A DNA stretch of 58,642 bases. Origin: Candidatus Magasanikiibacteriota bacterium. GTDB lineage: Bacteria; Patescibacteriota; Patescibacteriia; Magasanikbacterales; UBA922. Below are positions 1 to 55,939 of this stretch, piece by piece (position 1 is the first letter of the stretch; every line of letters starts with the position of its first letter). The notes beneath the pieces are model-generated. The model was not told where the DNA came from. It searched no databases and worked only from the letters and a program-made list of their open reading frames with translations. The stretch covers positions 1 through 58,642 of the forward strand of contig JAAZJX010000069.1 in NCBI GenBank assembly GCA_012800155.1, given 5' to 3'. Both the position numbers and the translations under genes were made by a program.

Positions 1-142
1 AATCTTAGACTTAGGTATTTTACCTTCAGATTTTATTCAGTCTGAAGAAGTTAAAGAAATTGCTAAAGAAGGTTTGAGAGAAAGTTTAAAAAATAGTTGG
101 ATAAACGAAGCTAAAGAAATCTTAGACTTAGGTATTTTACCT
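1..142 (+). repeat. Direct repeat of an identical 25-mer (1..25 and 118..142, period 117 nt = 39 codons) inside the 5' end of the large ORF
   Basis: aatcttagacttaggtattttacct occurs at 1..25 and again at 118..142. Both copies encode ILDLGILP in the same frame. Confidence 0.9.
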
Positions 143-2632
143 CCAGAAATAGATCATATTAATTTTTCAATAAATTCTTTTGTAGAAAAATTAAATATAA
201 AAACATGGGAAGAATTATTAAGAGAAAATCAAAATAATTTATCTTATTTAAGTTGGCTTATTGAACATAATTATGAATGTTTTTTTAATAGAGAAGATTT
301 AAATAAAATTGATCAAAGAGTAAAAATAACTTACCCAGAAGCTCATGTAGCTAAACAAAATGGTATTGATATTTTTACAAAAGATGCTGGTAAAAGTATT
401 TATGAAAGTATTATAAATAATGATGAACTTCCTGAATGGCAGGATGAACAAAATGTTTCTATGCCATTTCAGCGTGGAGCTGAGATATTTGGTTATGATA
501 AAATGTTTACTTATTGTCAGCGTCAAGATCTTTCTCGTCATGATGCTTTACACCAACTTGGTTATGTGATTGCGATGTATGAATCTAGTAATCTTTCAGA
601 AAAAGAATTTTTTGGTAATATTCTTTTTCAAGTTAATAAAGATGGCGCTAGATATGATTCTGGTACAGCTCATCATGAATTTAATCATGTGGCTGTGAAT
701 TTTAATTCTAATATTGAAGAAATTTTAGCTCAAGTAAAAAAATATGCTGATGTAGATAAATTGCAACAATTAGCTCAAGATTTGTCTTCACAAGAACAAA
801 TTTTTGCTTCGTGGAAAAACTTATATAAATATTATGAACTTTGTCAATTATTAAAGAAAATTGAAATTTTAAAGGATTTACAAAAACTTAAACAAGAGGG
901 AAAAGCAGAATTATATAAATACATAGAAACTTTGGCTTTTCATCCAAATATTAGCATGCAAGCTGTTTTAGAATTTTGGCGTAGTCCAGCTAAATTTTTA
1001 GAAATTGATGATGGACATTCACAGAGTGCGCATGAAAACAAAAAACCTTCTAATTATGTGGAAATACCTTATTTAGATTTAAATGCAGAGAATTTACGAG
1101 ATGCTTTGGTGGAAGGTAGTTTGGATGAATTACAAGTTTTTCAACCATTTGAAATTGAATATGAACTTCCTTTTGAAAAAAGAAGAGAACAAGAGCCAGA
1201 AAAAACAATTAGAACTATATTAAGAGAGCAATTAGGTTATTTTGATTTAAAACAAAACAAGCGGATTCCTGGAAGTAGAAAAAAACCAGGAGATTTAATT
1301 CGTTTAATTGGAGAATTACTAAAAGAAAATGATATAGATTTTAAAGAATATATACGAAATGAAGAAGAACAGGAATTATCTCCAGAAATACAAAAACAAA
1401 TATTACAGTTTTTGGGAATGGATAATAAAAAACAACAAACAGTTGGTCAGACAATTAAATATCGTGCTAAAATTAATGCTAAATCAGATCCAGAGGGTGT
1501 CGTAGCAGGTAATGATACTTCTTGTTGTATGCCGTTTGGTTCTGGTAAAAATAATATTTATACTTTTAATCCAGATTGCACTATTTTTACTTTACAACAA
1601 CAACGCCCAGATAATACTTGGCGTACCATAGCTCAAAGTGTCTTGACTAAAGATGTAGATATAAAGGAAAATGTTCAAAAAGTTTTTTCAGCCATGCAAG
1701 ATACAAATAAACCAGCTATTCAAGATATTCTTCCTGAAGATATTTTAACTCAGTCAGAATTTATTTTAGCTTGTGATAATGTAGAAGTAACACCTAATGT
1801 AAGAAGTAATGAGTTAATTACAAGACAAATAGAAATGATTTATCAAGATTTTATGTTTGAGTATTTAAGTAGATATGGTGAAAGAGATAATCTTCGACAA
1901 GAACAAGTTGTTATCGGTAAAGGCTTTTCTGATAGTTTGACAAATTTACCTGAAGTAAAAAATACTTATGTTCCAGCTGCTCCTGTAGCTTATACTGATA
2001 AAAGTCATTCTACAGTATATTCTTTAACACCTCAAAAAATTGAAGATGAAATTGTATCTAAAAAAATTATTGAATATGATAGTCAACAAAGAGATTCATA
2101 TCAATCTAGTCAACCGGGTGTTTCTTTACTTACTTTTGAAGATTCTCTCCGAGTAGCTTTTATAGAAGGTAAAGCCTATGCTGACAATAAAACTTTAATA
2201 CAACATATTCATAATATGGAAAATGGTCTTATTGCTAAAGATATTAACAATCAGCAAAAAGATCGACCAAATATGAGTTTTAAATATGAGGATAAAAATA
2301 AAAAAATGCAAGGTTATATTTTTGCTTATGAAGGTGTAGTGGGCAATGAAAAAATGATTTATGTAACAGATATTGCTGTGAATGAAAAAGGTAAGGGTGC
2401 TGGCTTGGCTTTAATGATAGCTTTTTTAGAAAGATATAAAATAGAATATTTAGCGAATAATAATCCTTTACCAATTTATGCTCAAATGCGTGAACAAACA
2501 TCTTATTCTATGATTAAGAGTAAATTATCTGAATTTAGTCGTCTTTTGGGTGTAAAATTAGATTTAGAAGAACATGGTACATACAGACAAGGTGAGGATA
2601 TTATGCATGAAGTTGTAATAAGAGTAAAATAA
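2..2632 (+). CDS. Large multidomain protein, 5'-partial (frame open to window edge); HExxH motif; C-terminal GNAT-like acetyltransferase domain
   Basis: The frame of the 74..2632 ORF has no stop back to nt 2, so the TTG 'start' at 74 is an edge artefact. HEFNH lies at nt 674..688. The C-terminus (about nt 2120..2629) has a GNAT motif-A-like segment, IYVTDIAVNEKGKGAGLALMIAFLE. The remainder has no family I recognise. Confidence 0.7.
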   Translation: MLDLGILPSDFIQSEEVKEIAKEGLRESLKNSWINEAKEILDLGILPPEIDHINFSINSFVEKLNIKTWEELLRENQNNLSYLSWLIEHNYECFFNREDLNKIDQRVKITYPEAHVAKQNGIDIFTKDAGKSIYESIINNDELPEWQDEQNVSMPFQRGAEIFGYDKMFTYCQRQDLSRHDALHQLGYVIAMYESSNLSEKEFFGNILFQVNKDGARYDSGTAHHEFNHVAVNFNSNIEEILAQVKKYADVDKLQQLAQDLSSQEQIFASWKNLYKYYELCQLLKKIEILKDLQKLKQEGKAELYKYIETLAFHPNISMQAVLEFWRSPAKFLEIDDGHSQSAHENKKPSNYVEIPYLDLNAENLRDALVEGSLDELQVFQPFEIEYELPFEKRREQEPEKTIRTILREQLGYFDLKQNKRIPGSRKKPGDLIRLIGELLKENDIDFKEYIRNEEEQELSPEIQKQILQFLGMDNKKQQTVGQTIKYRAKINAKSDPEGVVAGNDTSCCMPFGSGKNNIYTFNPDCTIFTLQQQRPDNTWRTIAQSVLTKDVDIKENVQKVFSAMQDTNKPAIQDILPEDILTQSEFILACDNVEVTPNVRSNELITRQIEMIYQDFMFEYLSRYGERDNLRQEQVVIGKGFSDSLTNLPEVKNTYVPAAPVAYTDKSHSTVYSLTPQKIEDEIVSKKIIEYDSQQRDSYQSSQPGVSLLTFEDSLRVAFIEGKAYADNKTLIQHIHNMENGLIAKDINNQQKDRPNMSFKYEDKNKKMQGYIFAYEGVVGNEKMIYVTDIAVNEKGKGAGLALMIAFLERYKIEYLANNNPLPIYAQMREQTSYSMIKSKLSEFSRLLGVKLDLEEHGTYRQGEDIMHEVVIRVK

Positions 2633-2703: not shown

Positions 2704-4761
2704 ATGAAAAGAAACAAAACCAATATTCGTTCTAAACTCCGTTGGGGGATAGTAGGTATATTCGTACTTATGATAGTAGCGAGTTTTTTTGATTTTCCAG
2801 TTTATGCCAACAAAGGTTTGGATTTTATAAATGATAATTTACATCTTGGTTTACCTCGTTTACCAGAAAAAAATTTTAATTTAGGATTGGATCTTCAAGG
2901 TGGAGCTCAATTGATTTATCAAGCTGATACTACAAATATTGCTAATAATGAAATAGGAACAGCTGTTGAAGGTGTGAGAGATGTTATTGAACGCCGAATA
3001 AATTCTTTAGGAGTTTCTGAACCAATTGTTCAAACTAATAAAATTGGTGAAGAGTATCGTATTTCAGTAGAATTAGCTGGAGTAACAGATATCAAAGAGG
3101 CTATTGCTATGATTGGTGGTACACCAATTTTGGAATTTAAAGAAATAAATAATGAGCCAGCTCGAGAATTAACTGCTGAAGAAAAGAAAGAAATGGATAA
3201 TTATAATAAAGAAGCAAAAATTAAAGCTAATCAAGCTTTGCAAAAAGTAAAAGCTGGTACAGATTTTGCTTCTGTAGTTGCAGAATATTCTGAAGATATG
3301 ATAAGTAAAAATAATGCTGGTTATATGGGATATTTAAGCAATAATACTATTTATCCAGAAATTTATGCTTGGGCCAGTACTAATGCAGAAGGATCAATTA
3401 GTAAAACTTTATTAGAAACAACTGATGGTTATAATATTTTAAAACGCGGTGGAGAACAAGAAGGAGAAATTGAAGTTAAGGCTAGTCATATTTTGATTTG
3501 TTATCTTGGTTCTCAAGGTTGTGAAAATCCTATTTATACCAAAGAAGAAGCTAGAGCTAAAGCTCAAGAAATTTATAATCAAGCCAATGCTACAAATTTT
3601 GCTCAATTAGCTAAAGAAAATTCATCTGATCCTGGTAGCAAAGATAATGGTGGAGAATTAGGTTGGTTTGGAAAAGGAGTTATGATACCTGAGTTTGAAA
3701 AAGCAATTTTTGATAATACTCAAGTAGGAGAAATTGTTGGTCCGGTTGAAACAGCTTTTGGTTTTCATATAATTTATAAAGTTGATGAGAGAAGAAGTAA
3801 AACTTATGAAGTATCTAGAATTTTAATAAATACTAAAACAGAAACTGATATTATTCCTCCTCAGGATATTTGGAAAAATACTGATTTATCGGGAAAACAA
3901 TTAGAAAAAGCTGAAGTGGTATCTGATCCTCAAACAGGAGCGGTGCAAGTTTCTTTATCTTTTGATAATGAAGGTAAACAATTATTTGCAGATATTACAG
4001 AAAGAAATGTTGGTCAGCCTGTGGCTATTTTCTTAGATGGAGAACCAATCAGCGTACCAACAGTCAATGATGTTATCCGTGATGGTCGGGCTGTGATCAG
4101 TGGTAATTTTAATATCAAAGAAGCACAATTACTTTCTCAAAGATTGAATACTGGTGCTTTGCCAGTACCTATTGAGTTAGTTAGTCAACAAACTGTTGGC
4201 GCTAGTTTAGGTATTCAATCATTACAATTAAGTTTGAGAGCTGGAATAATTGGTATTTTAGCTATTATGTTGTTTATGTTGTTGTATTATCGTTTACCAG
4301 GATTTTTATCAGTAATTGCTTTGACAGTTTATGTATTTACTACTTTGGCTTTATTTAAATTAATTGGAGTAACTTTGACTTTGTCTGGTATTGCTGGTTT
4401 TATTTTGTCAATCGGTATGGCAGTAGATGCGAATGTATTGATTTTTGAACGCATGAAAGAAGAATTAAGAGCTGGAAAAACTTTACGAGTAGCCGTAGAA
4501 GAAGGATTTTTAAGAGCTTGGACTTCTATTCGTGATAGTAATCTTTCTACTTTGATTAGTTGTGTATTGTTGATGTGGATTGGTACTGGATTTGTAAAAG
4601 GTTTTGCTGTTACTTTGTCAATTGGTATTTTAGTTAGCATGTTCACTGCAATCACTGTTAGCAGAACAATGTTGCGTTTTGTTTGTCCATGGTTTAGTGA
4701 ATATGGTAATTGGTTGTTCTTGGGTTCTTGCAAACAAGAAAAAACGGAGGTGAAAAAATAA
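2704..4761 (+). CDS. secD: Protein translocase subunit SecD with inserted parvulin-type PPIase domain(s)
   Basis: N-terminal TM helix. SecD periplasmic motifs are present: LGLDLQGGAQLIYQAD, RINSLGVSEPIVQ, VAIFLDGEPISVPTV, ISGNF..EAQLLSQRLNTGALPVP. The C-terminus is a 6-TM RND-like domain. Immediately followed by secF. Confidence 0.93.
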   Translation: MKRNKTNIRSKLRWGIVGIFVLMIVASFFDFPVYANKGLDFINDNLHLGLPRLPEKNFNLGLDLQGGAQLIYQADTTNIANNEIGTAVEGVRDVIERRINSLGVSEPIVQTNKIGEEYRISVELAGVTDIKEAIAMIGGTPILEFKEINNEPARELTAEEKKEMDNYNKEAKIKANQALQKVKAGTDFASVVAEYSEDMISKNNAGYMGYLSNNTIYPEIYAWASTNAEGSISKTLLETTDGYNILKRGGEQEGEIEVKASHILICYLGSQGCENPIYTKEEARAKAQEIYNQANATNFAQLAKENSSDPGSKDNGGELGWFGKGVMIPEFEKAIFDNTQVGEIVGPVETAFGFHIIYKVDERRSKTYEVSRILINTKTETDIIPPQDIWKNTDLSGKQLEKAEVVSDPQTGAVQVSLSFDNEGKQLFADITERNVGQPVAIFLDGEPISVPTVNDVIRDGRAVISGNFNIKEAQLLSQRLNTGALPVPIELVSQQTVGASLGIQSLQLSLRAGIIGILAIMLFMLLYYRLPGFLSVIALTVYVFTTLALFKLIGVTLTLSGIAGFILSIGMAVDANVLIFERMKEELRAGKTLRVAVEEGFLRAWTSIRDSNLSTLISCVLLMWIGTGFVKGFAVTLSIGILVSMFTAITVSRTMLRFVCPWFSEYGNWLFLGSCKQEKTEVKK
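3472..3789 (+). other. PpiC/parvulin peptidyl-prolyl isomerase domain embedded in the SecD periplasmic region (aa 257-362)
   Basis: KASHILICY...SSDPGSKDNGGELGWFGKGVMIPEFEKAIF...VGEIVGPVETAFGFHIIYKV matches the canonical parvulin pattern (His-strand, S.D..s...GG.LG.f, FG.HII). A degenerate second parvulin-like segment precedes it (aa 172-248, nt 3217..3447). Confidence 0.8.
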
Positions 4762-4762
4762 T

Positions 4763-5680
4763 ATGCAAATTAATTTTATTGGAAAAAGAAATTTTACTTT
4801 TACTATCTCTGGAATTTTGTTTATAACGGCTTTATTCTTTTTGTTTGTTTTTGGTTTAAAACCGGGTATGGATTTTACAGGTGGATCTTTATTAGAAGTT
4901 AGTTTTTCTAATAATCGTCCAGAAGTAACACAAGTTAGAGAGTTAGTTCAAAGTATGAATTTTGGCACAGTTGTAGTACAAACTACAGATAATAATGGAG
5001 TTATTATTAAAACTAAATTTTTAACAGAAGAAGAACATCAAAATTTATTATCTAATTTAAGAACTAATTTTGAAAATGAAGAAAGTAAAGTTTTGGAACA
5101 AAGATTTGAAACTATTGGTTCTTCTGTCAGTTCTTCTTTACGTAATCGTTCGTTTACAGCTATTATTACTGTTTGTATTGGTATTATTTTATTTATTGCT
5201 TATGCATTTAGAAAAGTTTCTCGACCAGTAGCTTCTTGGAAATATGGTGCAGTAGCAGTAGTTGGTTTAGTGCATAATATAGTAATTACAGCAGGAGTTT
5301 TTGCAATTTTAGGTAAATTTGCTGGAGTAGAAGTGGATACAGCTTTTGTAGTGGCTTTATTGACAGTACTTGGTTATTCAGTTAATGATACGATTGTAGT
5401 TTTTGATCGAATTAGAGAAAATCTTATTAAGCATAGTGTGGATGATTTTTCGAGTTTGGTAAATAAAGCTATTAATGATACTATTGCTCGATCTATCAAT
5501 ACTACTTTGACTACTTTATTAGCTTTGTCAGCTTTGTATTTTTTCGGTGGCGTAACAATAAAAAACTTTTCTTTAGCTTTGATAATTGGTATTTTTTTAG
5601 GCGCTTATTCATCTATTTTTGTAGCCAGTCCATTATTAGTAGTTTGGCATAATTGGGATGAAAAAAGAAGAAATAAATAA
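4763..5680 (+). CDS. secF: Protein translocase subunit SecF
   Basis: MDFTGGSLLEV motif and a 6-TM domain containing GYSVNDTIVVFDRIRE. The start lies 1 nt after the secD stop, with a GGAGGTG Shine-Dalgarno inside the secD 3' end. Confidence 0.93.
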   Translation: MQINFIGKRNFTFTISGILFITALFFLFVFGLKPGMDFTGGSLLEVSFSNNRPEVTQVRELVQSMNFGTVVVQTTDNNGVIIKTKFLTEEEHQNLLSNLRTNFENEESKVLEQRFETIGSSVSSSLRNRSFTAIITVCIGIILFIAYAFRKVSRPVASWKYGAVAVVGLVHNIVITAGVFAILGKFAGVEVDTAFVVALLTVLGYSVNDTIVVFDRIRENLIKHSVDDFSSLVNKAINDTIARSINTTLTTLLALSALYFFGGVTIKNFSLALIIGIFLGAYSSIFVASPLLVVWHNWDEKRRNK

Positions 5681-5993: not shown

Positions 5994-7448
5994 ATGTTTT
6001 TAGGTCCTTTTTATATTGATTTAGATTTAATATTACAGTTTTTTTTGCGTCCTACTTTTGAAGTAGTTTTTGATGTTGTCATTATTATTGGTTGGGTAGT
6101 GTTAGCTTATTTATTATTTTTTCTTTCAGTTTATTATTGGATAGAATATAAAACTAATCATTATACTGCTGATTGGAAATGGGTTTTATTAGCGATTGAT
6201 GTTCCTTTAGAAAATGTTCAAACTCCAAAAGCTGTAGAACAGTTATTTGCTCATTTAGCTGGAGCTTTTGATAGTTTGAATATAGAAAAAGTTTTCAAAA
6301 ATGGAGTTAGACAACGATGGTTTAGTTTTGAAATTATTAGTATTGAAGGTTATATTCAGTTTTTAGTTCGGACTGAAGAAATTTTTCGTGATTTAATAGA
6401 AGCAGCTATTTATGCGCAATATCCAGATGCAGATATTACTGAAGTAGAAGATTATGTTGATATTGCTCCAGAAATTTATCCAGATCCAGATTATGATGTT
6501 TGGGTAGGAGATTTTTCTTTAGCTGAGAATGATGCTTTTCCAATTAGAACTTATAGATATTTTGAACACAATATATCCAAAGATACAGTTTTAAAAGATC
6601 CAATGAGTGCCTTTTTAGAAAGTTTTTCTAGAATTGGTTCAGGAGAACAAATGTGGTTTCAAATAATTATTGAACCTATTTCTAATAGTTGGAAAGAAGA
6701 TGCTATTAAAAAAATTAAAGAAGTTATTGGAGATGTTAGCACTAAGAAAAAATCTGGTTTTGGTTTACCTTTTGAAAGAGAAGTTGCTAAAACTTGGGAT
6801 GAAATTAGCGCTCAAGTTTTTGGAACTATTAGAGCTGAAAATGGAGAAGAAAAAAGTAAACAATCTGAACCAAATCAACTTAAATATCTTACACCAGGAC
6901 AAACAAAAATAGTTGAAGCTATGGAAGAAAAAATTACTAAAGTTGGATTTAAAACCAAAATGCGAGGAGTTTATTTAGCTAGAAATGAAGTTTTTAAATC
7001 AGAAAGAGGAATCAATGCTTTGGTGGGAGCTATACAACAATTTAATATACCTAGTGCCAATTCTATTGTGCCAAAATTTACTACAAGTGTATTTTATTTT
7101 GGAAAAGAAAAAAAATCTGCTCTCAGAAAAGCTAATTTAATTAAGGCTTATAAAAATAGAAAAATAAAGACTGGTAGTAATCCTTTTGTGTTAAATACAG
7201 AAGAGCTAGCTACTATTTGGCATTTTCCTATGTCTCATGTGAAAACACCTCAAGTACAAAAAACTATTTCTAAACGCTCAGAACCTCCAGTTGGTTTACC
7301 TATAGAATCAATATATAATCAGGTAGTAAGCAATATACAAGATCGAGATGAATCTAAAATAATAAAAAAAGATAAAAATGAGACAACAAAATATCAAACA
7401 GATTCTGGCAGTATTGGTAATGACGATAATATAATAAAATTTGGTTAA
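5994..7448 (+). CDS. Membrane-anchored protein of unknown function (484 aa)
   Basis: N-terminal TM helix or helices (VVIIIGWVVLAYLLFFLSVYYW) followed by a large soluble domain. No Walker A, HExxH or other catalytic motif seen. A conserved-looking segment, EELATIWHFP, lies near the C-terminus. Confidence 0.6.
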   Translation: MFLGPFYIDLDLILQFFLRPTFEVVFDVVIIIGWVVLAYLLFFLSVYYWIEYKTNHYTADWKWVLLAIDVPLENVQTPKAVEQLFAHLAGAFDSLNIEKVFKNGVRQRWFSFEIISIEGYIQFLVRTEEIFRDLIEAAIYAQYPDADITEVEDYVDIAPEIYPDPDYDVWVGDFSLAENDAFPIRTYRYFEHNISKDTVLKDPMSAFLESFSRIGSGEQMWFQIIIEPISNSWKEDAIKKIKEVIGDVSTKKKSGFGLPFEREVAKTWDEISAQVFGTIRAENGEEKSKQSEPNQLKYLTPGQTKIVEAMEEKITKVGFKTKMRGVYLARNEVFKSERGINALVGAIQQFNIPSANSIVPKFTTSVFYFGKEKKSALRKANLIKAYKNRKIKTGSNPFVLNTEELATIWHFPMSHVKTPQVQKTISKRSEPPVGLPIESIYNQVVSNIQDRDESKIIKKDKNETTKYQTDSGSIGNDDNIIKFG

Positions 7449-24595: not shown

Positions 24596-25567
24596 ATGTC
24601 AGTTAATACCAAAGCGATAAAACGAAGAATAAAATCTGTTGGCTCAACTCATAAAATTACTAAGGCTATGCAAATGATTTCGGCTGTAAAAATGAGAAAA
24701 GCAGTTGATTCAGCTATAAATACTCGTACTTATGCTACATTAGCTTGGGATTTATTAGTAAAATTATCAAAAACTAAAAAGAAAGAACTTCCTTTATTAG
24801 ATGCTAGACAAGTAAAAAAATTATTAATAATAATGATCACCTCTAATCGTGGTTTGTGTGGAAGTTTTAATGCTAATATTATCAAAAAAACAGCTGAACA
24901 ACTGAATAATCCAATAAATATTGGTCGACAGAGAGTAGAAAATACTTTTTTAGAACCAAGTTCTGAAATGATAGTTGATGTAATTGGAATTGGTAAAAAA
25001 GGTGCTGATTTTGCCAAAAAAATGAATTATAATTTAATTGCTTCTTTTTCTGATTTTTCTGATACTCCAACTTTAAATGATGTTTTGCCGATTAGTCGAA
25101 TGGTAATTGAAGCTTATGAAAAAAAACAATATGATAAAGTAGTAGCAGCTTATACAGATTTTAAATCTACTATCAATCAAGTAGCAAAATTTAGACAAGT
25201 ATTGCCAATTTCTGAATTTGATTTAGAAAAAATGTTATTAAGTTTAGGTGATCAAGAACAAGAAAAGCAAAATAAAAAAATGACCAAAGAGCGTGCAGAA
25301 TTTGAATTAGATAATTATCTTTTTGAACCAAACCAAGATCAAGTTTTACAAATCATTTTGCCTAAATTAGTAGAAACTCAAATTTATCAAGCCGTTTTAG
25401 AATCATCAGCTTCTGAACACAGTGCTCGTATGATGGCAATGCAAAATGCTAGTGAGGCTGCTTCGGAAATGATTGGAGAATTAAATTTAATCTATAACAA
25501 AGCTCGTCAGGCTGGTATTACGCAAGAAATTGCGGAAATTGCTGGTGGTGCGGCTGCTTTAGAATAA
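24596..25567 (+). CDS. atpG: F0F1 ATP synthase subunit gamma
   Basis: N-terminal IKRRIKSV..T.KITKAMQMISAVKMRKA and C-terminal ARQAGITQEIAEI.GGAAAL. Confidence 0.95.
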   Translation: MSVNTKAIKRRIKSVGSTHKITKAMQMISAVKMRKAVDSAINTRTYATLAWDLLVKLSKTKKKELPLLDARQVKKLLIIMITSNRGLCGSFNANIIKKTAEQLNNPINIGRQRVENTFLEPSSEMIVDVIGIGKKGADFAKKMNYNLIASFSDFSDTPTLNDVLPISRMVIEAYEKKQYDKVVAAYTDFKSTINQVAKFRQVLPISEFDLEKMLLSLGDQEQEKQNKKMTKERAEFELDNYLFEPNQDQVLQIILPKLVETQIYQAVLESSASEHSARMMAMQNASEAASEMIGELNLIYNKARQAGITQEIAEIAGGAAALE

Positions 25568-25578
25568 TTTATAAATAA

Positions 25579-26970
<1,392 letters not shown>

Positions 26971-26975
26971 TATTT

Positions 26976-27410
26976 ATGAATACTATTCATTTTAAAATTG
27001 CTACTCCAGAAAAAATTATTTATGAAAATGATGTTTTTAAAATTTCTATTCCAACTACTACTGGAGAAATTACTATTTTACCACATCATATTCCTTTAGT
27101 ATCAATTGTTCAGGCAGGTGAATTAAAAGTAACTAGTAAGATGGGAGAACAAATAATTGCTGTTTCTAGTGGGTTTGTAGAAATAAAAGCTAATAATGAA
27201 GTAATTATTTTAGCTGATAATGCTGAACGCGCTGAATTGATTGATATTGAAAGAGCAGAAAAAGCCAGAAAAAGAGCTGAGGAAGAAATGGCTAAGGCTA
27301 GAAGTCAGGAAAATGTTGATTATGCTAAATTACAAGCTGTTATTGATCGCGAGATGAATAGAATTAAAATTGGTAAAAAATATAAAAAAATAAATATTAA
27401 GAATAATTAA
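26976..27410 (+). CDS. atpC: F0F1 ATP synthase subunit epsilon
   Basis: An N-terminal beta-sandwich (TILPHHIPL) and a C-terminal helical hairpin. Last gene of the operon. Confidence 0.9.
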   Translation: MNTIHFKIATPEKIIYENDVFKISIPTTTGEITILPHHIPLVSIVQAGELKVTSKMGEQIIAVSSGFVEIKANNEVIILADNAERAELIDIERAEKARKRAEEEMAKARSQENVDYAKLQAVIDREMNRIKIGKKYKKINIKNN

Positions 27411-27602
27411 TTTTGTTTGAATTATTTTTAAATCTGCATAATATTAAACTTTTTATTTTAGATATTACATAAATTGTGATGTTTATGAAAAGTATAAAAT
27501 TTTTCTAATTTTAATAAAAAACAATTAATATAATCGATTGTTTTTTATTTTAATTATTTATAAATTCTTAAATCATTATAATTAAAATTATAATGTAATT
27601 AA

Positions 27603-28940
27603 ATGATTTTATTAATTAATCTATATATGAAAAAATTAAAATCGTTAATAATTCTTATTTTACAAGTAGTTGTTGTTTCTATAGGTTTGCATTATCTAAG
27701 AAATGCTTTACAAGCTTCAGATAATCATGAAATTAGTTTTGTAATGGTAATGCTTATAGATATTGCATTTTTGGCTGTTTATGCTTCTATGGGTGGTCGT
27801 TTAGCAAGATTATTAGGTTTTGCTCCAATGGCTGGTAAAATAATTATGGGTATTGTAGCTGGTCCAGCTGTTTTAGGTGTTTTACAACCTTATTCTGAGG
27901 GAGTAGAATTAGCTCGTTTAGCAGGTGTTTTATTTATTTTATTTGAAGCAGGTCTTCATTTTGATATGGAATTATTAAAAAAGAATTGGTTTATTTCTAC
28001 TGTCATTGCTTGTGTAGGTGTTTTTATTCCACTTGTTAGTATTGCTTTACTTGGACATTATGTCTTTTCTTTGGCTTGGATGCCAGCAATTTTTTTAGGA
28101 GGTGTTTTTACTGCAACTTCTGTTGGATTGTCAGTTGAAGCTTTAAAAAGAGCTGGTAAATTGGAAACTAATGTAGGTAATAAAATTATTGGCGCAGCAG
28201 TAATTGATGATATTTTAGGTGTTTTAGTTTTGACAATATTGGCAAAATTATCAAATGGTAATTTGGAAATGATGAGTATTGTGTGGATTTTTGTAGCTGT
28301 GGTTGTTTTTTTTGGCGGAGCTTATATACTTTGGAGTTGGGGAGTGGCTGATAAAATTGTTAAATATTTAGAAAGAAATTATGTTGGAAATTCAGAATCA
28401 ATCACTGGTCCTTCAACTCGTTTTTTCTTTGGTGCTTTGATGTTGACAGGCGCTTTAGCTGGGGTAATTGGTTTAGAACCAGTTTTAGGAGCTTTTGGTA
28501 TAGGAGTTGTTTTGTCAAAAGTAGATAATGAAATTAAAGATGAAACTTGGAAAAAAATAGAAGGTTATATGCATATTTTTGTAGGTGGATTTTTAGTAAG
28601 TATTGGTACAATGTTACCACGAGAATCTTTACTTGCTCCAAAAGCTTGGTTTTGGGCAATTATTTTAACATTATTAGCTTTTATTGGAAAATATCTTACA
28701 CGGTATGTTTTAAAAGATAAAGAAGAAGGTAAATTAGTTGGGCTTGCGATGTCAATTCGTGGTGAAGTTGGTTTAGTATTTATTGCTGTAGCTTTAGCTA
28801 ATCATGTTTTAGATGAAGTTACTGCTGCAGCTGGTTTGTTAGCAGTAATTTTGGTTACTGTTTTAGGTGCTATTCTTTTTGAAAAAGAAGTTATGAAACA
28901 AAGTGGGGTAAAAATTGTAAAATCAAAAGATCTTATTTAA
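27603..28940 (+). CDS. Cation:proton antiporter (CPA2 / Kef-NapA type)
   Basis: A protein with about 12 TM helices and the motifs GKIIMGIVAGPAVLG, LFILFEAGLHFD, ATSVGLSV and AAVIDDILGVLVL. The true start may be the ATG at 27627 (MKKLKSL). Confidence 0.85.
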   Translation: MILLINLYMKKLKSLIILILQVVVVSIGLHYLRNALQASDNHEISFVMVMLIDIAFLAVYASMGGRLARLLGFAPMAGKIIMGIVAGPAVLGVLQPYSEGVELARLAGVLFILFEAGLHFDMELLKKNWFISTVIACVGVFIPLVSIALLGHYVFSLAWMPAIFLGGVFTATSVGLSVEALKRAGKLETNVGNKIIGAAVIDDILGVLVLTILAKLSNGNLEMMSIVWIFVAVVVFFGGAYILWSWGVADKIVKYLERNYVGNSESITGPSTRFFFGALMLTGALAGVIGLEPVLGAFGIGVVLSKVDNEIKDETWKKIEGYMHIFVGGFLVSIGTMLPRESLLAPKAWFWAIILTLLAFIGKYLTRYVLKDKEEGKLVGLAMSIRGEVGLVFIAVALANHVLDEVTAAAGLLAVILVTVLGAILFEKEVMKQSGVKIVKSKDLI

Positions 28941-29305: not shown

Positions 29306-29337
29306 AAAAACAACCGACATTAATGTCGGTTGTTTTT
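29306..29337. terminator. Intrinsic-terminator-like hairpin that carries the palindrome axis
   Basis: aaaaa-caaccgaca-ttaa-tgtcggttg-ttttt: a 9-bp G/C-containing stem and a self-complementary TTAA loop, flanked by A5 and T5. The axis lies between 29321 and 29322. Confidence 0.7.
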
Positions 29338-53881: not shown

Positions 53882-55939
53882 TTATTTTTTCACCTCCGTT
53901 TTTTCTTGTTTGCAAGAACCCAAGAACAACCAATTACCATATTCACTAAACCATGGACAAACAAAACGCAACATTGTTCTGCTAACAGTGATTGCAGTGA
54001 ACATGCTAACTAAAATACCAATTGACAAAGTAACAGCAAAACCTTTTACAAATCCAGTACCAATCCACATCAACAATACACAACTAATCAAAGTAGAAAG
54101 ATTACTATCACGAATAGAAGTCCAAGCTCTTAAAAATCCTTCTTCTACGGCTACTCGTAAAGTTTTTCCAGCTCTTAATTCTTCTTTCATGCGTTCAAAA
54201 ATCAATACATTCGCATCTACTGCCATACCGATTGACAAAATAAAACCAGCAATACCAGACAAAGTCAAAGTTACTCCAATTAATTTAAATAAAGCCAAAG
54301 TAGTAAATACATAAACTGTCAAAGCAATTACTGATAAAAATCCTGGTAAACGATAATACAACAACATAAACAACATAATAGCTAAAATACCAATTATTCC
54401 AGCTCTCAAACTTAATTGTAATGATTGAATACCTAAACTAGCGCCAACAGTTTGTTGACTAACTAACTCAATAGGTACTGGCAAAGCACCAGTATTCAAT
54501 CTTTGAGAAAGTAATTGTGCTTCTTTGATATTAAAATTACCACTGATCACAGCCCGACCATCACGGATAACATCATTGACTGTTGGTACGCTGATTGGTT
54601 CTCCATCTAAGAAAATAGCCACAGGCTGACCAACATTTCTTTCTGTAATATCTGCAAATAATTGTTTACCTTCATTATCAAAAGATAAAGAAACTTGCAC
54701 CGCTCCTGTTTGAGGATCAGATACCACTTCAGCTTTTTCTAATTGTTTTCCCGATAAATCAGTATTTTTCCAAATATCCTGAGGAGGAATAATATCAGTT
54801 TCTGTTTTAGTATTTATTAAAATTCTAGATACTTCATAAGTTTTACTTCTTCTCTCATCAACTTTATAAATTATATGAAAACCAAAAGCTGTTTCAACCG
54901 GACCAACAATTTCTCCTACTTGAGTATTATCAAAAATTGCTTTTTCAAACTCAGGTATCATAACTCCTTTTCCAAACCAACCTAATTCTCCACCATTATC
55001 TTTGCTACCAGGATCAGATGAATTTTCTTTAGCTAATTGAGCAAAATTTGTAGCATTGGCTTGATTATAAATTTCTTGAGCTTTAGCTCTAGCTTCTTCT
55101 TTGGTATAAATAGGATTTTCACAACCTTGAGAACCAAGATAACAAATCAAAATATGACTAGCCTTAACTTCAATTTCTCCTTCTTGTTCTCCACCGCGTT
55201 TTAAAATATTATAACCATCAGTTGTTTCTAATAAAGTTTTACTAATTGATCCTTCTGCATTAGTACTGGCCCAAGCATAAATTTCTGGATAAATAGTATT
55301 ATTGCTTAAATATCCCATATAACCAGCATTATTTTTACTTATCATATCTTCAGAATATTCTGCAACTACAGAAGCAAAATCTGTACCAGCTTTTACTTTT
55401 TGCAAAGCTTGATTAGCTTTAATTTTTGCTTCTTTATTATAATTATCCATTTCTTTCTTTTCTTCAGCAGTTAATTCTCGAGCTGGCTCATTATTTATTT
55501 CTTTAAATTCCAAAATTGGTGTACCACCAATCATAGCAATAGCCTCTTTGATATCTGTTACTCCAGCTAATTCTACTGAAATACGATACTCTTCACCAAT
55601 TTTATTAGTTTGAACAATTGGTTCAGAAACTCCTAAAGAATTTATTCGGCGTTCAATAACATCTCTCACACCTTCAACAGCTGTTCCTATTTCATTATTA
55701 GCAATATTTGTAGTATCAGCTTGATAAATCAATTGAGCTCCACCTTGAAGATCCAATCCTAAATTAAAATTTTTTTCTGGTAAACGAGGTAAACCAAGAT
55801 GTAAATTATCATTTATAAAATCCAAACCTTTGTTGGCATAAACTGGAAAATCAAAAAAACTCGCTACTATCATAAGTACGAATATACCTACTATCCCCCA
55901 ACGGAGTTTAGAACGAATATTGGTTTTGTTTCTTTTCAT
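53882..55939 (-). CDS. secD: SecD with parvulin insertion (mirror copy)
   Basis: Exact mirror twin of 2704..4761. Confidence 0.93.
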   Translation of the reverse strand: MKRNKTNIRSKLRWGIVGIFVLMIVASFFDFPVYANKGLDFINDNLHLGLPRLPEKNFNLGLDLQGGAQLIYQADTTNIANNEIGTAVEGVRDVIERRINSLGVSEPIVQTNKIGEEYRISVELAGVTDIKEAIAMIGGTPILEFKEINNEPARELTAEEKKEMDNYNKEAKIKANQALQKVKAGTDFASVVAEYSEDMISKNNAGYMGYLSNNTIYPEIYAWASTNAEGSISKTLLETTDGYNILKRGGEQEGEIEVKASHILICYLGSQGCENPIYTKEEARAKAQEIYNQANATNFAQLAKENSSDPGSKDNGGELGWFGKGVMIPEFEKAIFDNTQVGEIVGPVETAFGFHIIYKVDERRSKTYEVSRILINTKTETDIIPPQDIWKNTDLSGKQLEKAEVVSDPQTGAVQVSLSFDNEGKQLFADITERNVGQPVAIFLDGEPISVPTVNDVIRDGRAVISGNFNIKEAQLLSQRLNTGALPVPIELVSQQTVGASLGIQSLQLSLRAGIIGILAIMLFMLLYYRLPGFLSVIALTVYVFTTLALFKLIGVTLTLSGIAGFILSIGMAVDANVLIFERMKEELRAGKTLRVAVEEGFLRAWTSIRDSNLSTLISCVLLMWIGTGFVKGFAVTLSIGILVSMFTAITVSRTMLRFVCPWFSEYGNWLFLGSCKQEKTEVKK

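Follow-up and report, generated by a model that had tools for sequence, protein, structure and literature searches.

We found that the SecD protein encoded in a stretch of DNA from a Candidatus Magasanikiibacteriota bacterium (class Patescibacteriia, order Magasanikbacterales, family UBA922) fuses the export motor and prolyl isomerase domains in one chain. The stretch analyzed (here called the window) is the 58,642-nucleotide contig JAAZJX010000069.1 of assembly GCA_012800155.1. It is probable that the protein is a functional SecD whose extracytoplasmic region P1 gained a rigid module of two parvulin domains in the connector between the P1 base and the P1 head, and that this module acts as a foldase at the exit of the channel. 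An original prediction, made from the sequence alone, had proposed a SecD with an in-line parvulin insertion in its periplasmic domain. Pfam, NCBIfam, two AlphaFold models and Foldseek concur with that proposal. The features are as follows, with positions in the window and in amino acids (aa) of the product.

2704..4761, + strand: secD, 685 aa, with the parvulin module inserted in P1; assigned by TIGR01129 and Foldseek
2725..2793, + strand: N-terminal transmembrane helix, aa 8-30; a helix in the AlphaFold 2 (AF2) model
2875..3150, + strand: N-terminal part of the P1 base, aa 58-149, with Sec_GG and SecD_1st; closes with a conserved TPILEFK strand (strand 143-148 in the AF2 model)
3175..3453, + strand: outer parvulin, helix alpha1 (aa 158-183) and body (aa 186-250); Rotamase 2.1e-13
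3469..3789, + strand: inner parvulin, aa 256-362, in standard strand order; Rotamase_3 8.2e-32
3799..3831, + strand: strand KTYEVSRILIN, aa 366-376, putative beta1 of the outer parvulin, displaced; R372 occupies the position of the His
3874..4167, + strand: Pfam SecDF_P1_head match, aa 391-488, comprising the P1 head and adjoining P1 sequence; 6.1e-28
4171..4677, + strand: SecD transmembrane domain, aa 490-658, SecD_SecF_C; holds the invariant GMAVDANVLIFER motif
4763..5680, + strand: secF, 305 aa, starting two bases past the secD stop; TIGR00966 283.6 bits (cut-off 160)
53882..55939, - strand: mirror copy of secD, a fold-back assembly product and not a second gene

The window protein is a SecD with an insertion in P1

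The window protein is a bona fide SecD with its P1 base, P1 head and transmembrane domain intact. It scored 395 bits against the NCBIfam secD model TIGR01129 (curated cut-off 244.4). The Pfam matches were, in order, Sec_GG (aa 58-77), SecD_1st (aa 89-149; 57.4 bits), two stretches of Rotamase/Rotamase_3, SecDF_P1_head (aa 391-488; 97.4 bits, covering profile 17-114 of 114) and SecD_SecF_C (aa 490-658; 52.9 bits). The cut-offs are 27 bits for each of SecD_1st and SecDF_P1_head and 20.5 bits for SecD_SecF_C. Two residues of the GMAVDANVLIFER motif, D575 and N577, were invariant across 54 family sequences, and they may be the counterpart of the essential proton-path Asp of Thermus or E. coli SecD. 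The top Foldseek matches of the full-length model were the SecDF structures 5YHF (E 3.6e-22), 5XAN and 3AQP. In addition, the crystal structure of P1 from T. thermophilus (3AQO) matched the full-length model with a template modelling (TM) score of 0.62-0.65, normalized to the target.

The parvulin insert decorates the P1 arm and does not replace P1, as base and head were both detected. The question of decoration or replacement had been raised with the original prediction, to be settled by structure prediction. The base and head are retained and the module is in the connector.

The insertion contains two parvulin domains

There are ~210 extra residues (aa ~150-385) between SecD_1st and SecDF_P1_head in the window SecD, close to the ~200 that had been claimed. 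This estimate is by comparison to a canonical relative from the same phylum (L045, 449 aa), in which ~30 residues separate the LEF(K/R) strand from the match to the head. Along the chain, the window protein has a helix (158-183), body 1 (186-250, ending in ..DGYNILKR), the strand VKASHILI (256-264), a Cys-containing loop and a helix, body 2 (297-362, ending in ..FGFHIIYK), the strand YEVSRILIN, and then the head.

A scan of the full-length protein gave two Rotamase matches, at aa ~160-247 and 244-361, and two stretches of Rotamase_3 (2.4e-43). The match at aa 244-361 (the inner domain) was a complete standard parvulin, covering profile 2-113 of 116. Both domains were also detected when scanned alone. 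A segment from aa 142-252, containing the outer domain, matched Rotamase (2.1e-13, 51.5 bits with a cut-off of 21.7), and one from aa 249-369 matched Rotamase_3 (8.2e-32, 110.6 bits, profile 12-113 of 116). The match of the outer domain covers profile 9-94 of 97. That is, it begins at position 9, so the first strand is missing in the linear order.

A Pfam scan with profile hidden Markov models had been named beforehand as a check, and rotamase domains were indeed detected in aa 170-365. The coordinates claimed for the feature, 3217-3789, correspond to aa 172-362 and take in both parvulin bodies, and every motif quoted in support of it is present. The complete parvulin placed at aa 257-362 has both the Rotamase_3 match and the full active-site set (below). 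The description of the module as PrsA/SurA-type holds for the parvulin domains only. No SurA_N/PrsA-type chaperone domain was found in the SecD: there was no match to the SurA_N family in the window SecD at E <= 0.1 (Pfam). Thus, the module shares only its parvulin domains with the PrsA, SurA and PpiD families.

Active-site residues of the two domains

The active-site set of parvulins, as numbered in Pin1, is H59, C113, T152 and H157. The inner domain is apparently catalytic, judging from its conserved set of H262, D309, T350 and H355. In the family of the window SecD, H262, H355 and S307 were found in 54 of 54 sequences. Position 309 was D in 48 of 54 and E in the other 6, position 350 was T in 51 and S in 3, and M327 and F331 were each present in at least 50 of the 54. 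When the inner domain (query 8-111) was aligned by phmmer to residues 54-162 of Pin1, H262 fell on H59 and H355 fell on H157. D309 is in the context S-S-D-P-G-S-K..GG-E-LG, and the consensus of stand-alone parvulins, SDDPSSKKNGGDLG, has the same spacing. An Asp one residue off the position of Pin1 C113 has been described for the active PrsA of B. subtilis (10.1101/2024.09.05.611430).

The outer domain has N244 and R372 in place of the two His and retains D198, T239 and S196. N244 was found in 50 of 54 sequences, and E197, D198, N203, N204, G206, Y207, N244 and R372 were each found in at least 50. We do not call this domain inactive, because His-to-Asn variants of Pin1 were reported to be functional and because activity was still seen with Mpn444, which has Arg at the first His position (10.1101/2024.09.05.611430; 10.1101/2025.04.25.650208). 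From its residues, it would be better termed histidine-less.

The beta1-alpha1 loop of the inner parvulin contains two cysteines, C266 and C273 (window 3499-3522), seven residues apart and present in 54 of 54 close-family sequences. In a wider set, both were present in 9 sequences and neither in 4; a single one was never found. This pattern suggests an extracytoplasmic disulfide, for which it would be expected.

The outer parvulin appears to be circularly permuted

We aligned the connector region of 26 SecDs, including SecDs with a single parvulin. In these, the order is LEFK, a helix (N.EAKKKAE..LK.A), a body (DF..LAK.YSEDPGS...GGDLGW...FGYHIIKK), a short loop, KEVKASHILIKTK, and the head. 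The His-bearing first strand is found after the last strand, and this order is that of a circular permutation. Both His positions were His in 9 of 9 single-parvulin SecDs. We tested for permutation with a model built from 107 stand-alone parvulin domains of standard order, moving the C-terminal strand to the front. The score increased by 4-12 bits in 8 of the 9 single-parvulin sequences, and the start of coverage shifted from model positions 24-33 to 6-8. Neither the single-parvulin SecDs nor the outer domain of the window SecD has the standard strand order, with beta1 first: profile matches begin at 7-13 and the beta1 motif comes after beta4. The inner domain has the standard order.

In the alignment, the strand at aa 366-376 of the window protein falls on KEVKASHILI, which is the His-bearing strand in SecDs with a single parvulin. 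Based on these results we infer that the outer domain is circularly permuted, with its helix and body first and strand 366-376 last. The inner domain would then be nested in the beta4-beta1 hairpin of the outer domain, and two long antiparallel strands, 242-265 and 353-376, would form a spine common to both. Both AlphaFold models contained unbroken 24-residue strands at 242-265 and 353-376, as expected if beta4 of a domain passes without a break into beta1 of its partner and the long strands pair antiparallel. In addition, four relatives are missing exactly beta1, the helix and body 2, and retain body 1 and an ARIFI strand. The conservation pattern is matched as well: H262 and H355 are both invariant, while residues 244 and 372 were N and R together in 8 of the 9 sequences that have N244, and R372 was missing in 7 of the 8 that do not. 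This co-variation is suggestive of the last strand belonging to body 1.

Several points weigh against this topology. With the degenerate strand that carries R372, the same permutation test gave a gain of only 0-2 bits. The co-variation of 244 and 372 is confounded by common ancestry. The proposed strand pairing and nesting are read from DSSP strings, motif homology, residue co-variation and deletion variants. The original prediction had described this domain as a second, degenerate parvulin without the first His strand. That is correct as far as the linear order goes. A strand bearing the motif of a first strand does follow the second domain, however, and the degenerate domain appears permuted rather than truncated. 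Full-text literature searches found no paper describing a permuted parvulin topology.

Structure models of the module and of the full-length protein

AlphaFold predicted the module alone (aa 150-385) with a mean predicted local distance difference test (pLDDT) of 96.4 and a predicted TM score (pTM) of 0.82, indicating a rigid two-domain body in the model. In Foldseek searches with the module, its single domains matched the peptidyl-prolyl isomerase (PPIase) domain of PrsA, including that of S. aureus (2JZV and 6XD8, TM score 0.84; root mean square deviation (rmsd) 2.8 for 2JZV), the second parvulin of SurA (P2, 4G2P, 0.83) and the PPIase domain of Pin1 (0.78). SurA (1M5Y) was the top match with two domains, and its rmsd was ~14 Å over 222 columns. 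No solved structure among the Foldseek matches has the two-domain arrangement of the module. The full-length AF2 model had a pLDDT of 80.6 and a pTM of 0.43.

SecD with parvulin domains is the norm in this class of Patescibacteria

The SecD-parvulin design is the norm in the class to which the window belongs, and it recurs in hundreds of independent assemblies. Among the best 120 homologue clusters (62-100% identity; from NCBI, JGI, ENA and Logan assemblies, on contigs of up to 743 kilobases (kb)), all had the same set of Pfam domains. Where names were given, they were SecD of Candidatus Magasanikbacteria, Patescibacteria or Parcubacteria, and the source records label the fusion proteins just "SecD". 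In a search with the single sequence (11 loci), the closest module among genomes of named species was from Candidatus Magasanikbacteria (65-71% identity). A search with the module against 1.84 billion cluster representatives gave 83 proteins at E <= 1e-30, and 25 of the best 150 clusters at 50% identity contained SecD parts.

We searched a class sample of 121 genomes with a 261-aa module query, counting by hand among the matches listed. The whole module was matched in SecD-sized frames in 40 of the 120 other genomes. Approximately 64 genomes matched only the second half (from ~aa 141-160 of the query), in frames of ~550-690 aa, and most of these matches extended to the end of the query, including the junction with SecD. 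Two genomes matched the first half only, and the remainder had a weak match or none. A search of the same sample with Pfam Rotamase gave the same three frame-size classes. The Rotamase match started mostly at profile 7-13 in frames of ~550-640 aa and mostly at position 1 in frames of ~660-760 aa. Across the phylum (401 genomes), most SecD frames were 430-460 aa and matched the query only from ~aa 385 on.

Scoring of 40 SecD loci with models built from the window family distinguished five architectures. The tandem form (~680 aa) was found in 4 of 4 genomes of the window's family, in part of the genomes from the order and the class, and in a single distant one. SecDs with the outer domain only (~582 aa) were found in four genomes of the same order (loci L021, L024, L026 and L029, in genomes G192, G018, G158 and G071). 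The other forms were those with a single parvulin and both His (~570 aa), those with another insert of ~100 aa at the same connector, and canonical SecDs without an insert. In a tree of the SecD core, the outer-only SecDs fell inside a clade of tandem forms (support 100/100 and 100/99), indicating that the inner catalytic domain was lost secondarily. The tree has an open-polytomy backbone, with one locus (L020) on a very long branch, and it neither resolves whether tandem forms arose from single ones nor separates an internal duplication of the permuted unit from insertion of a second parvulin.

The ~100-aa inserts were found in other families of the phylum (L034-L038 and L043). They are located at the base-head connector, are partly acidic and of low complexity, and had no Pfam match. 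This connector seems prone to insertions in general.

There was no verified example of a tandem SecD outside Patescibacteria-type genomes among the 11 loci of the single-sequence search. Loci labelled Ignavibacteria and Chloroflexi, and one labelled Gammaproteobacteria (L056), encode stand-alone parvulins without SecD parts. The other locus labelled Gammaproteobacteria, on contig L050 (CAZHUL010000029.1, "uncultured Gammaproteobacteria"), has a Patescibacteria-type tandem SecD, as does the protein P0105 ("Candidatus Kapabacteria"). Both are at ~59-64% identity, and their labels are probably binning or labelling errors. Two cluster representatives, P0171 (297 aa) and P0189 (281 aa), have a P1-head-like segment before the parvulin, the reverse of the order in SecD. 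They could be pieces derived from similar fold-back contigs, or they could represent another architecture.

Stand-alone foldases are also present

The source genome, with 911,617 bp on 100 contigs, has a gene for a separate parvulin protein. On contig 56 (L001, 1330-2418, - strand) there is a gene for a 362-aa protein with an N-terminal transmembrane segment, SurA_N_2/SurA_N_3 and a complete parvulin (VRASHILF ... FGYHIVKL). From these domains, it is a predicted PpiD/PrsA-like foldase. The idea that the fusion replaces a stand-alone foldase in the source genome is ruled out by this protein. The original prediction had suggested the fusion as an economy for a reduced genome, and as a replacement this fails here, because a membrane-anchored protein with SurA_N and parvulin domains is present in addition.

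A stand-alone parvulin protein was also found in 6 of 6 other genomes of the order that were checked (G018, G071, G158, G192, G347 and G373), including 4 of 4 genomes with an outer-only SecD. In the class sample, at least 14 of the 40 tandem genomes had a parvulin in a frame of 300-480 aa or a third Rotamase match. Many other class genomes, chiefly those with the single form, had exactly one Rotamase match, and it was in a SecD-sized frame. The Pfam Rotamase search found no second parvulin in these sampled genomes, a result that does not prove absence. Thus, the proposed survey of SecD-rotamase fusions and stand-alone foldases had a divided outcome: many class genomes show only a SecD-borne parvulin, whereas the source genome and six relatives from the order keep a separate one.

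Comparison to known systems

The window SecD is similar to canonical SecD and SecDF (T. thermophilus 3AQP and 5YHF, D. radiodurans 5XAN and 5XAP, and E. coli SecD in 5MG3) in having an N-terminal transmembrane helix, a P1 base and head, a C-terminal transmembrane bundle with the MAVDANV motif, and an adjacent secF. Unlike the window SecD, the canonical proteins have no two-parvulin module of ~210 residues in the base-head connector.

SurA from E. coli (1M5Y) also has one parvulin without the catalytic His (its P1, inactive) and one that is catalytic (its P2, active) in the same chain. The best sequence match of the inner domain is P2, the second and C-terminal parvulin of SurA (5e-26), and the NCBIfam SurA model aligns over both domains of the window protein (aa 168-366). 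However, the module is without a SurA_N-type chaperone domain and the orientation of the two domains differs, as reflected in the rmsd given above. The domains of SurA are like beads on a string, whereas those of the module appear as a permuted outer domain and a nested inner domain, covalently part of SecD.

PrsA from Bacillus and Staphylococcus (4WO7, 2JZV and 6XD8) and PpiD (8ZHT) are similar to the module in having a parvulin PPIase with the non-Pin1 active-site loop S-x-D-x-G-S-K...GG-x-LG, and in their extracytoplasmic site beside the translocon. They differ in being separate proteins, each with its own anchor and chaperone domain. PpiD associates with SecYEG (PMC9643414). SurA binds the holo-translocon, and AlphaFold places its P1 and P2 parvulins on the P1 head of SecDF (PMC9987972). 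In Mycoplasma pneumoniae, a PrsA-like dome encloses the Sec translocon, density attributed to substrate touches the active PPIC domain, and crosslinking connects Mpn444 with SecD (10.1101/2025.04.25.650208; 10.1101/2024.09.05.611430). The dome (Mpn444, Mpn436 and Mpn489) is thus another case of a bacterium with a reduced genome that has parvulin domains directly over SecDF/SecYEG. It is non-covalent and made of large separate lipoproteins, whereas the parvulins of the window are spliced into SecD. The claim that the foldase is separate from SecDF in known systems and fused to it here stands: the parvulins are inside the SecD chain, and our full-text literature searches found no paper on a SecD-parvulin fusion or on parvulins in the candidate phyla radiation.

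Possible functions of the module

Structures of SecDF from Thermus and Deinococcus indicate that the P1 head takes hold of the emerging chain and, driven by the proton-motive force, moves between forms. In the prevailing view, SecDF uses this swing to pull the chain from SecYEG. In the mechanism we propose, the module would set a prolyl isomerase (the inner domain) and a peptide-binding or scaffold surface (the outer domain) beside the head, and chains would be captured and their prolyl bonds isomerized on leaving the channel. The outer-only variants suggest that the outer domain serves a purpose by itself, for binding or as scaffold. The module could in this way hard-wire a contact between SecDF and chaperones that is made by separate proteins in E. 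coli (SurA and PpiD) and Mycoplasma (the PrsA-like dome). By analogy to those proteins, the module may function as a foldase at the channel exit. Its unfixed position in the full-length model fits a mobile arm.

There are also observations that count against this function. The pTM of the full-length model was low enough that the placement of the module relative to the head and the membrane is not predicted. SurA and PpiD do not require PPIase activity to act as chaperones. The outer-only variants indicate that the catalytic domain can be lost, and the stand-alone foldase in the source genome means that the module is not the sole folding route.

It is possible, though rather unlikely, that the module is mainly a holdase, a substrate-binding extension of the P1 head in which prolyl isomerization is incidental or dispensable, as it is in SurA and PpiD. 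The outer domain lacks His and yet is strongly conserved, and each of eight of its residues is kept by 50 or more of the 54 sequences. In four genomes from the order, the inner catalytic domain was lost and the outer one retained; each of these genomes also encodes a stand-alone parvulin protein. Among matches with two domains, SurA is the closest in structure. However, the tandem family keeps the catalytic residues of the inner domain with little or no variation, and both His are found in all nine single forms. This conservation is hard to explain without selection on catalysis.

A further proposal, which we put forward as speculation and consider improbable, is that SecD with its module is an energy-coupled extracytoplasmic foldase. 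That is, the proton-motive force would move a prolyl isomerase and a binding surface cyclically along the chain.

We think it very unlikely that the module has a role unrelated to the folding of Sec substrates, for example as a structural spacer in a permissive loop of SecD, or in contact with the cell wall, the S-layer or the host cell of these episymbiotic bacteria. This connector does often carry inserts, among them those of ~100 aa in SecDs of other Patescibacteria, and the full-length model (pTM 0.43) does not fix a position for the module. Against such a role, the active-site residues are conserved, the domain is of the type that model bacteria recruit to SecDF or the translocon, and the same type of domain is at the same site throughout the whole class.

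The secD gene is intact in an assembly that contains an artefact

The window (1-58642) is identical to its own reverse complement, with 0 mismatches and the centre at 29321/29322. Independent metagenome contigs are 99.5-99.7% identical to it up to the centre and diverge right after a terminator-like hairpin, AAAAACAACCGACATTAATGTCGGTTGTTTTT. Beyond that point they carry a 43-aa open reading frame (ORF), EamA, CmpB and a UvrD-like helicase. Based on the palindrome and the divergence of the independent contigs, the second half of the window is a fold-back artefact and the unique sequence amounts to 29,321 bp. At a distance of 24.5 kb from secD, the fold-back point leaves the gene untouched.

The perfect palindrome does mean that the assembly holds an artefact, but we reject, as having almost no likelihood, the notion that a foldase gene and secD were merged by a frameshift or chimeric assembly: the parvulins are inside SecD, between its own P1 base and head, and are not terminal; the secD frame is open, with no stops; the fold-back is far from the gene; independent contigs, the largest of 260 kb, encode identical or near-identical proteins; the same architecture is seen in relatives (40-60% identity) whose genomes are complete in a single contig; and that architecture is common to at least 120 clusters from independent assemblies and to the class genomes. 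The original prediction had named an assembly frameshift, with two adjacent genes read as one, as grounds for giving it up; there is one open frame, on which independent assemblies agree.

Large ORFs are located on either side of secDF, one at 2-2632 (+ strand, 876 aa, open at its 5' end) and one at 5994-7448 (+ strand, 484 aa, with N-terminal transmembrane segments). Neither had a Pfam match at E <= 0.01. Further along, at ~24600-28940 (+ strand), are genes for the gamma, beta and epsilon subunits of ATP synthase, followed by a Na+/H+ exchanger gene (445 aa, 27603-28940), as assigned from the Pfam families listed for near-identical contigs.

Implications

How chains are handed over from SecYEG to extracytoplasmic chaperones is an open question in the field. 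To date, the view that SecDF contacts SurA, PpiD or PrsA-like proteins has been based on inference from low-resolution electron microscopy, crosslinks and AlphaFold models. A natural fusion found across a class is independent evolutionary evidence for parvulin foldases working at the P1 head of SecDF, and the module is a compact, predicted rigid construct for structural and biochemical study of the coupling of SecDF to a foldase. The fusion would also add a naturally permuted and nested topology to those of parvulins. Further, one connector of SecD appears to be a hot spot of domain gain and loss, with tandem, single and His-less-only forms and other inserts. If the proposal of energy coupling were true, these bacteria would have an energy-coupled foldase, built from a naturally permuted parvulin, in a compartment thought to be without an energy source for chaperones.

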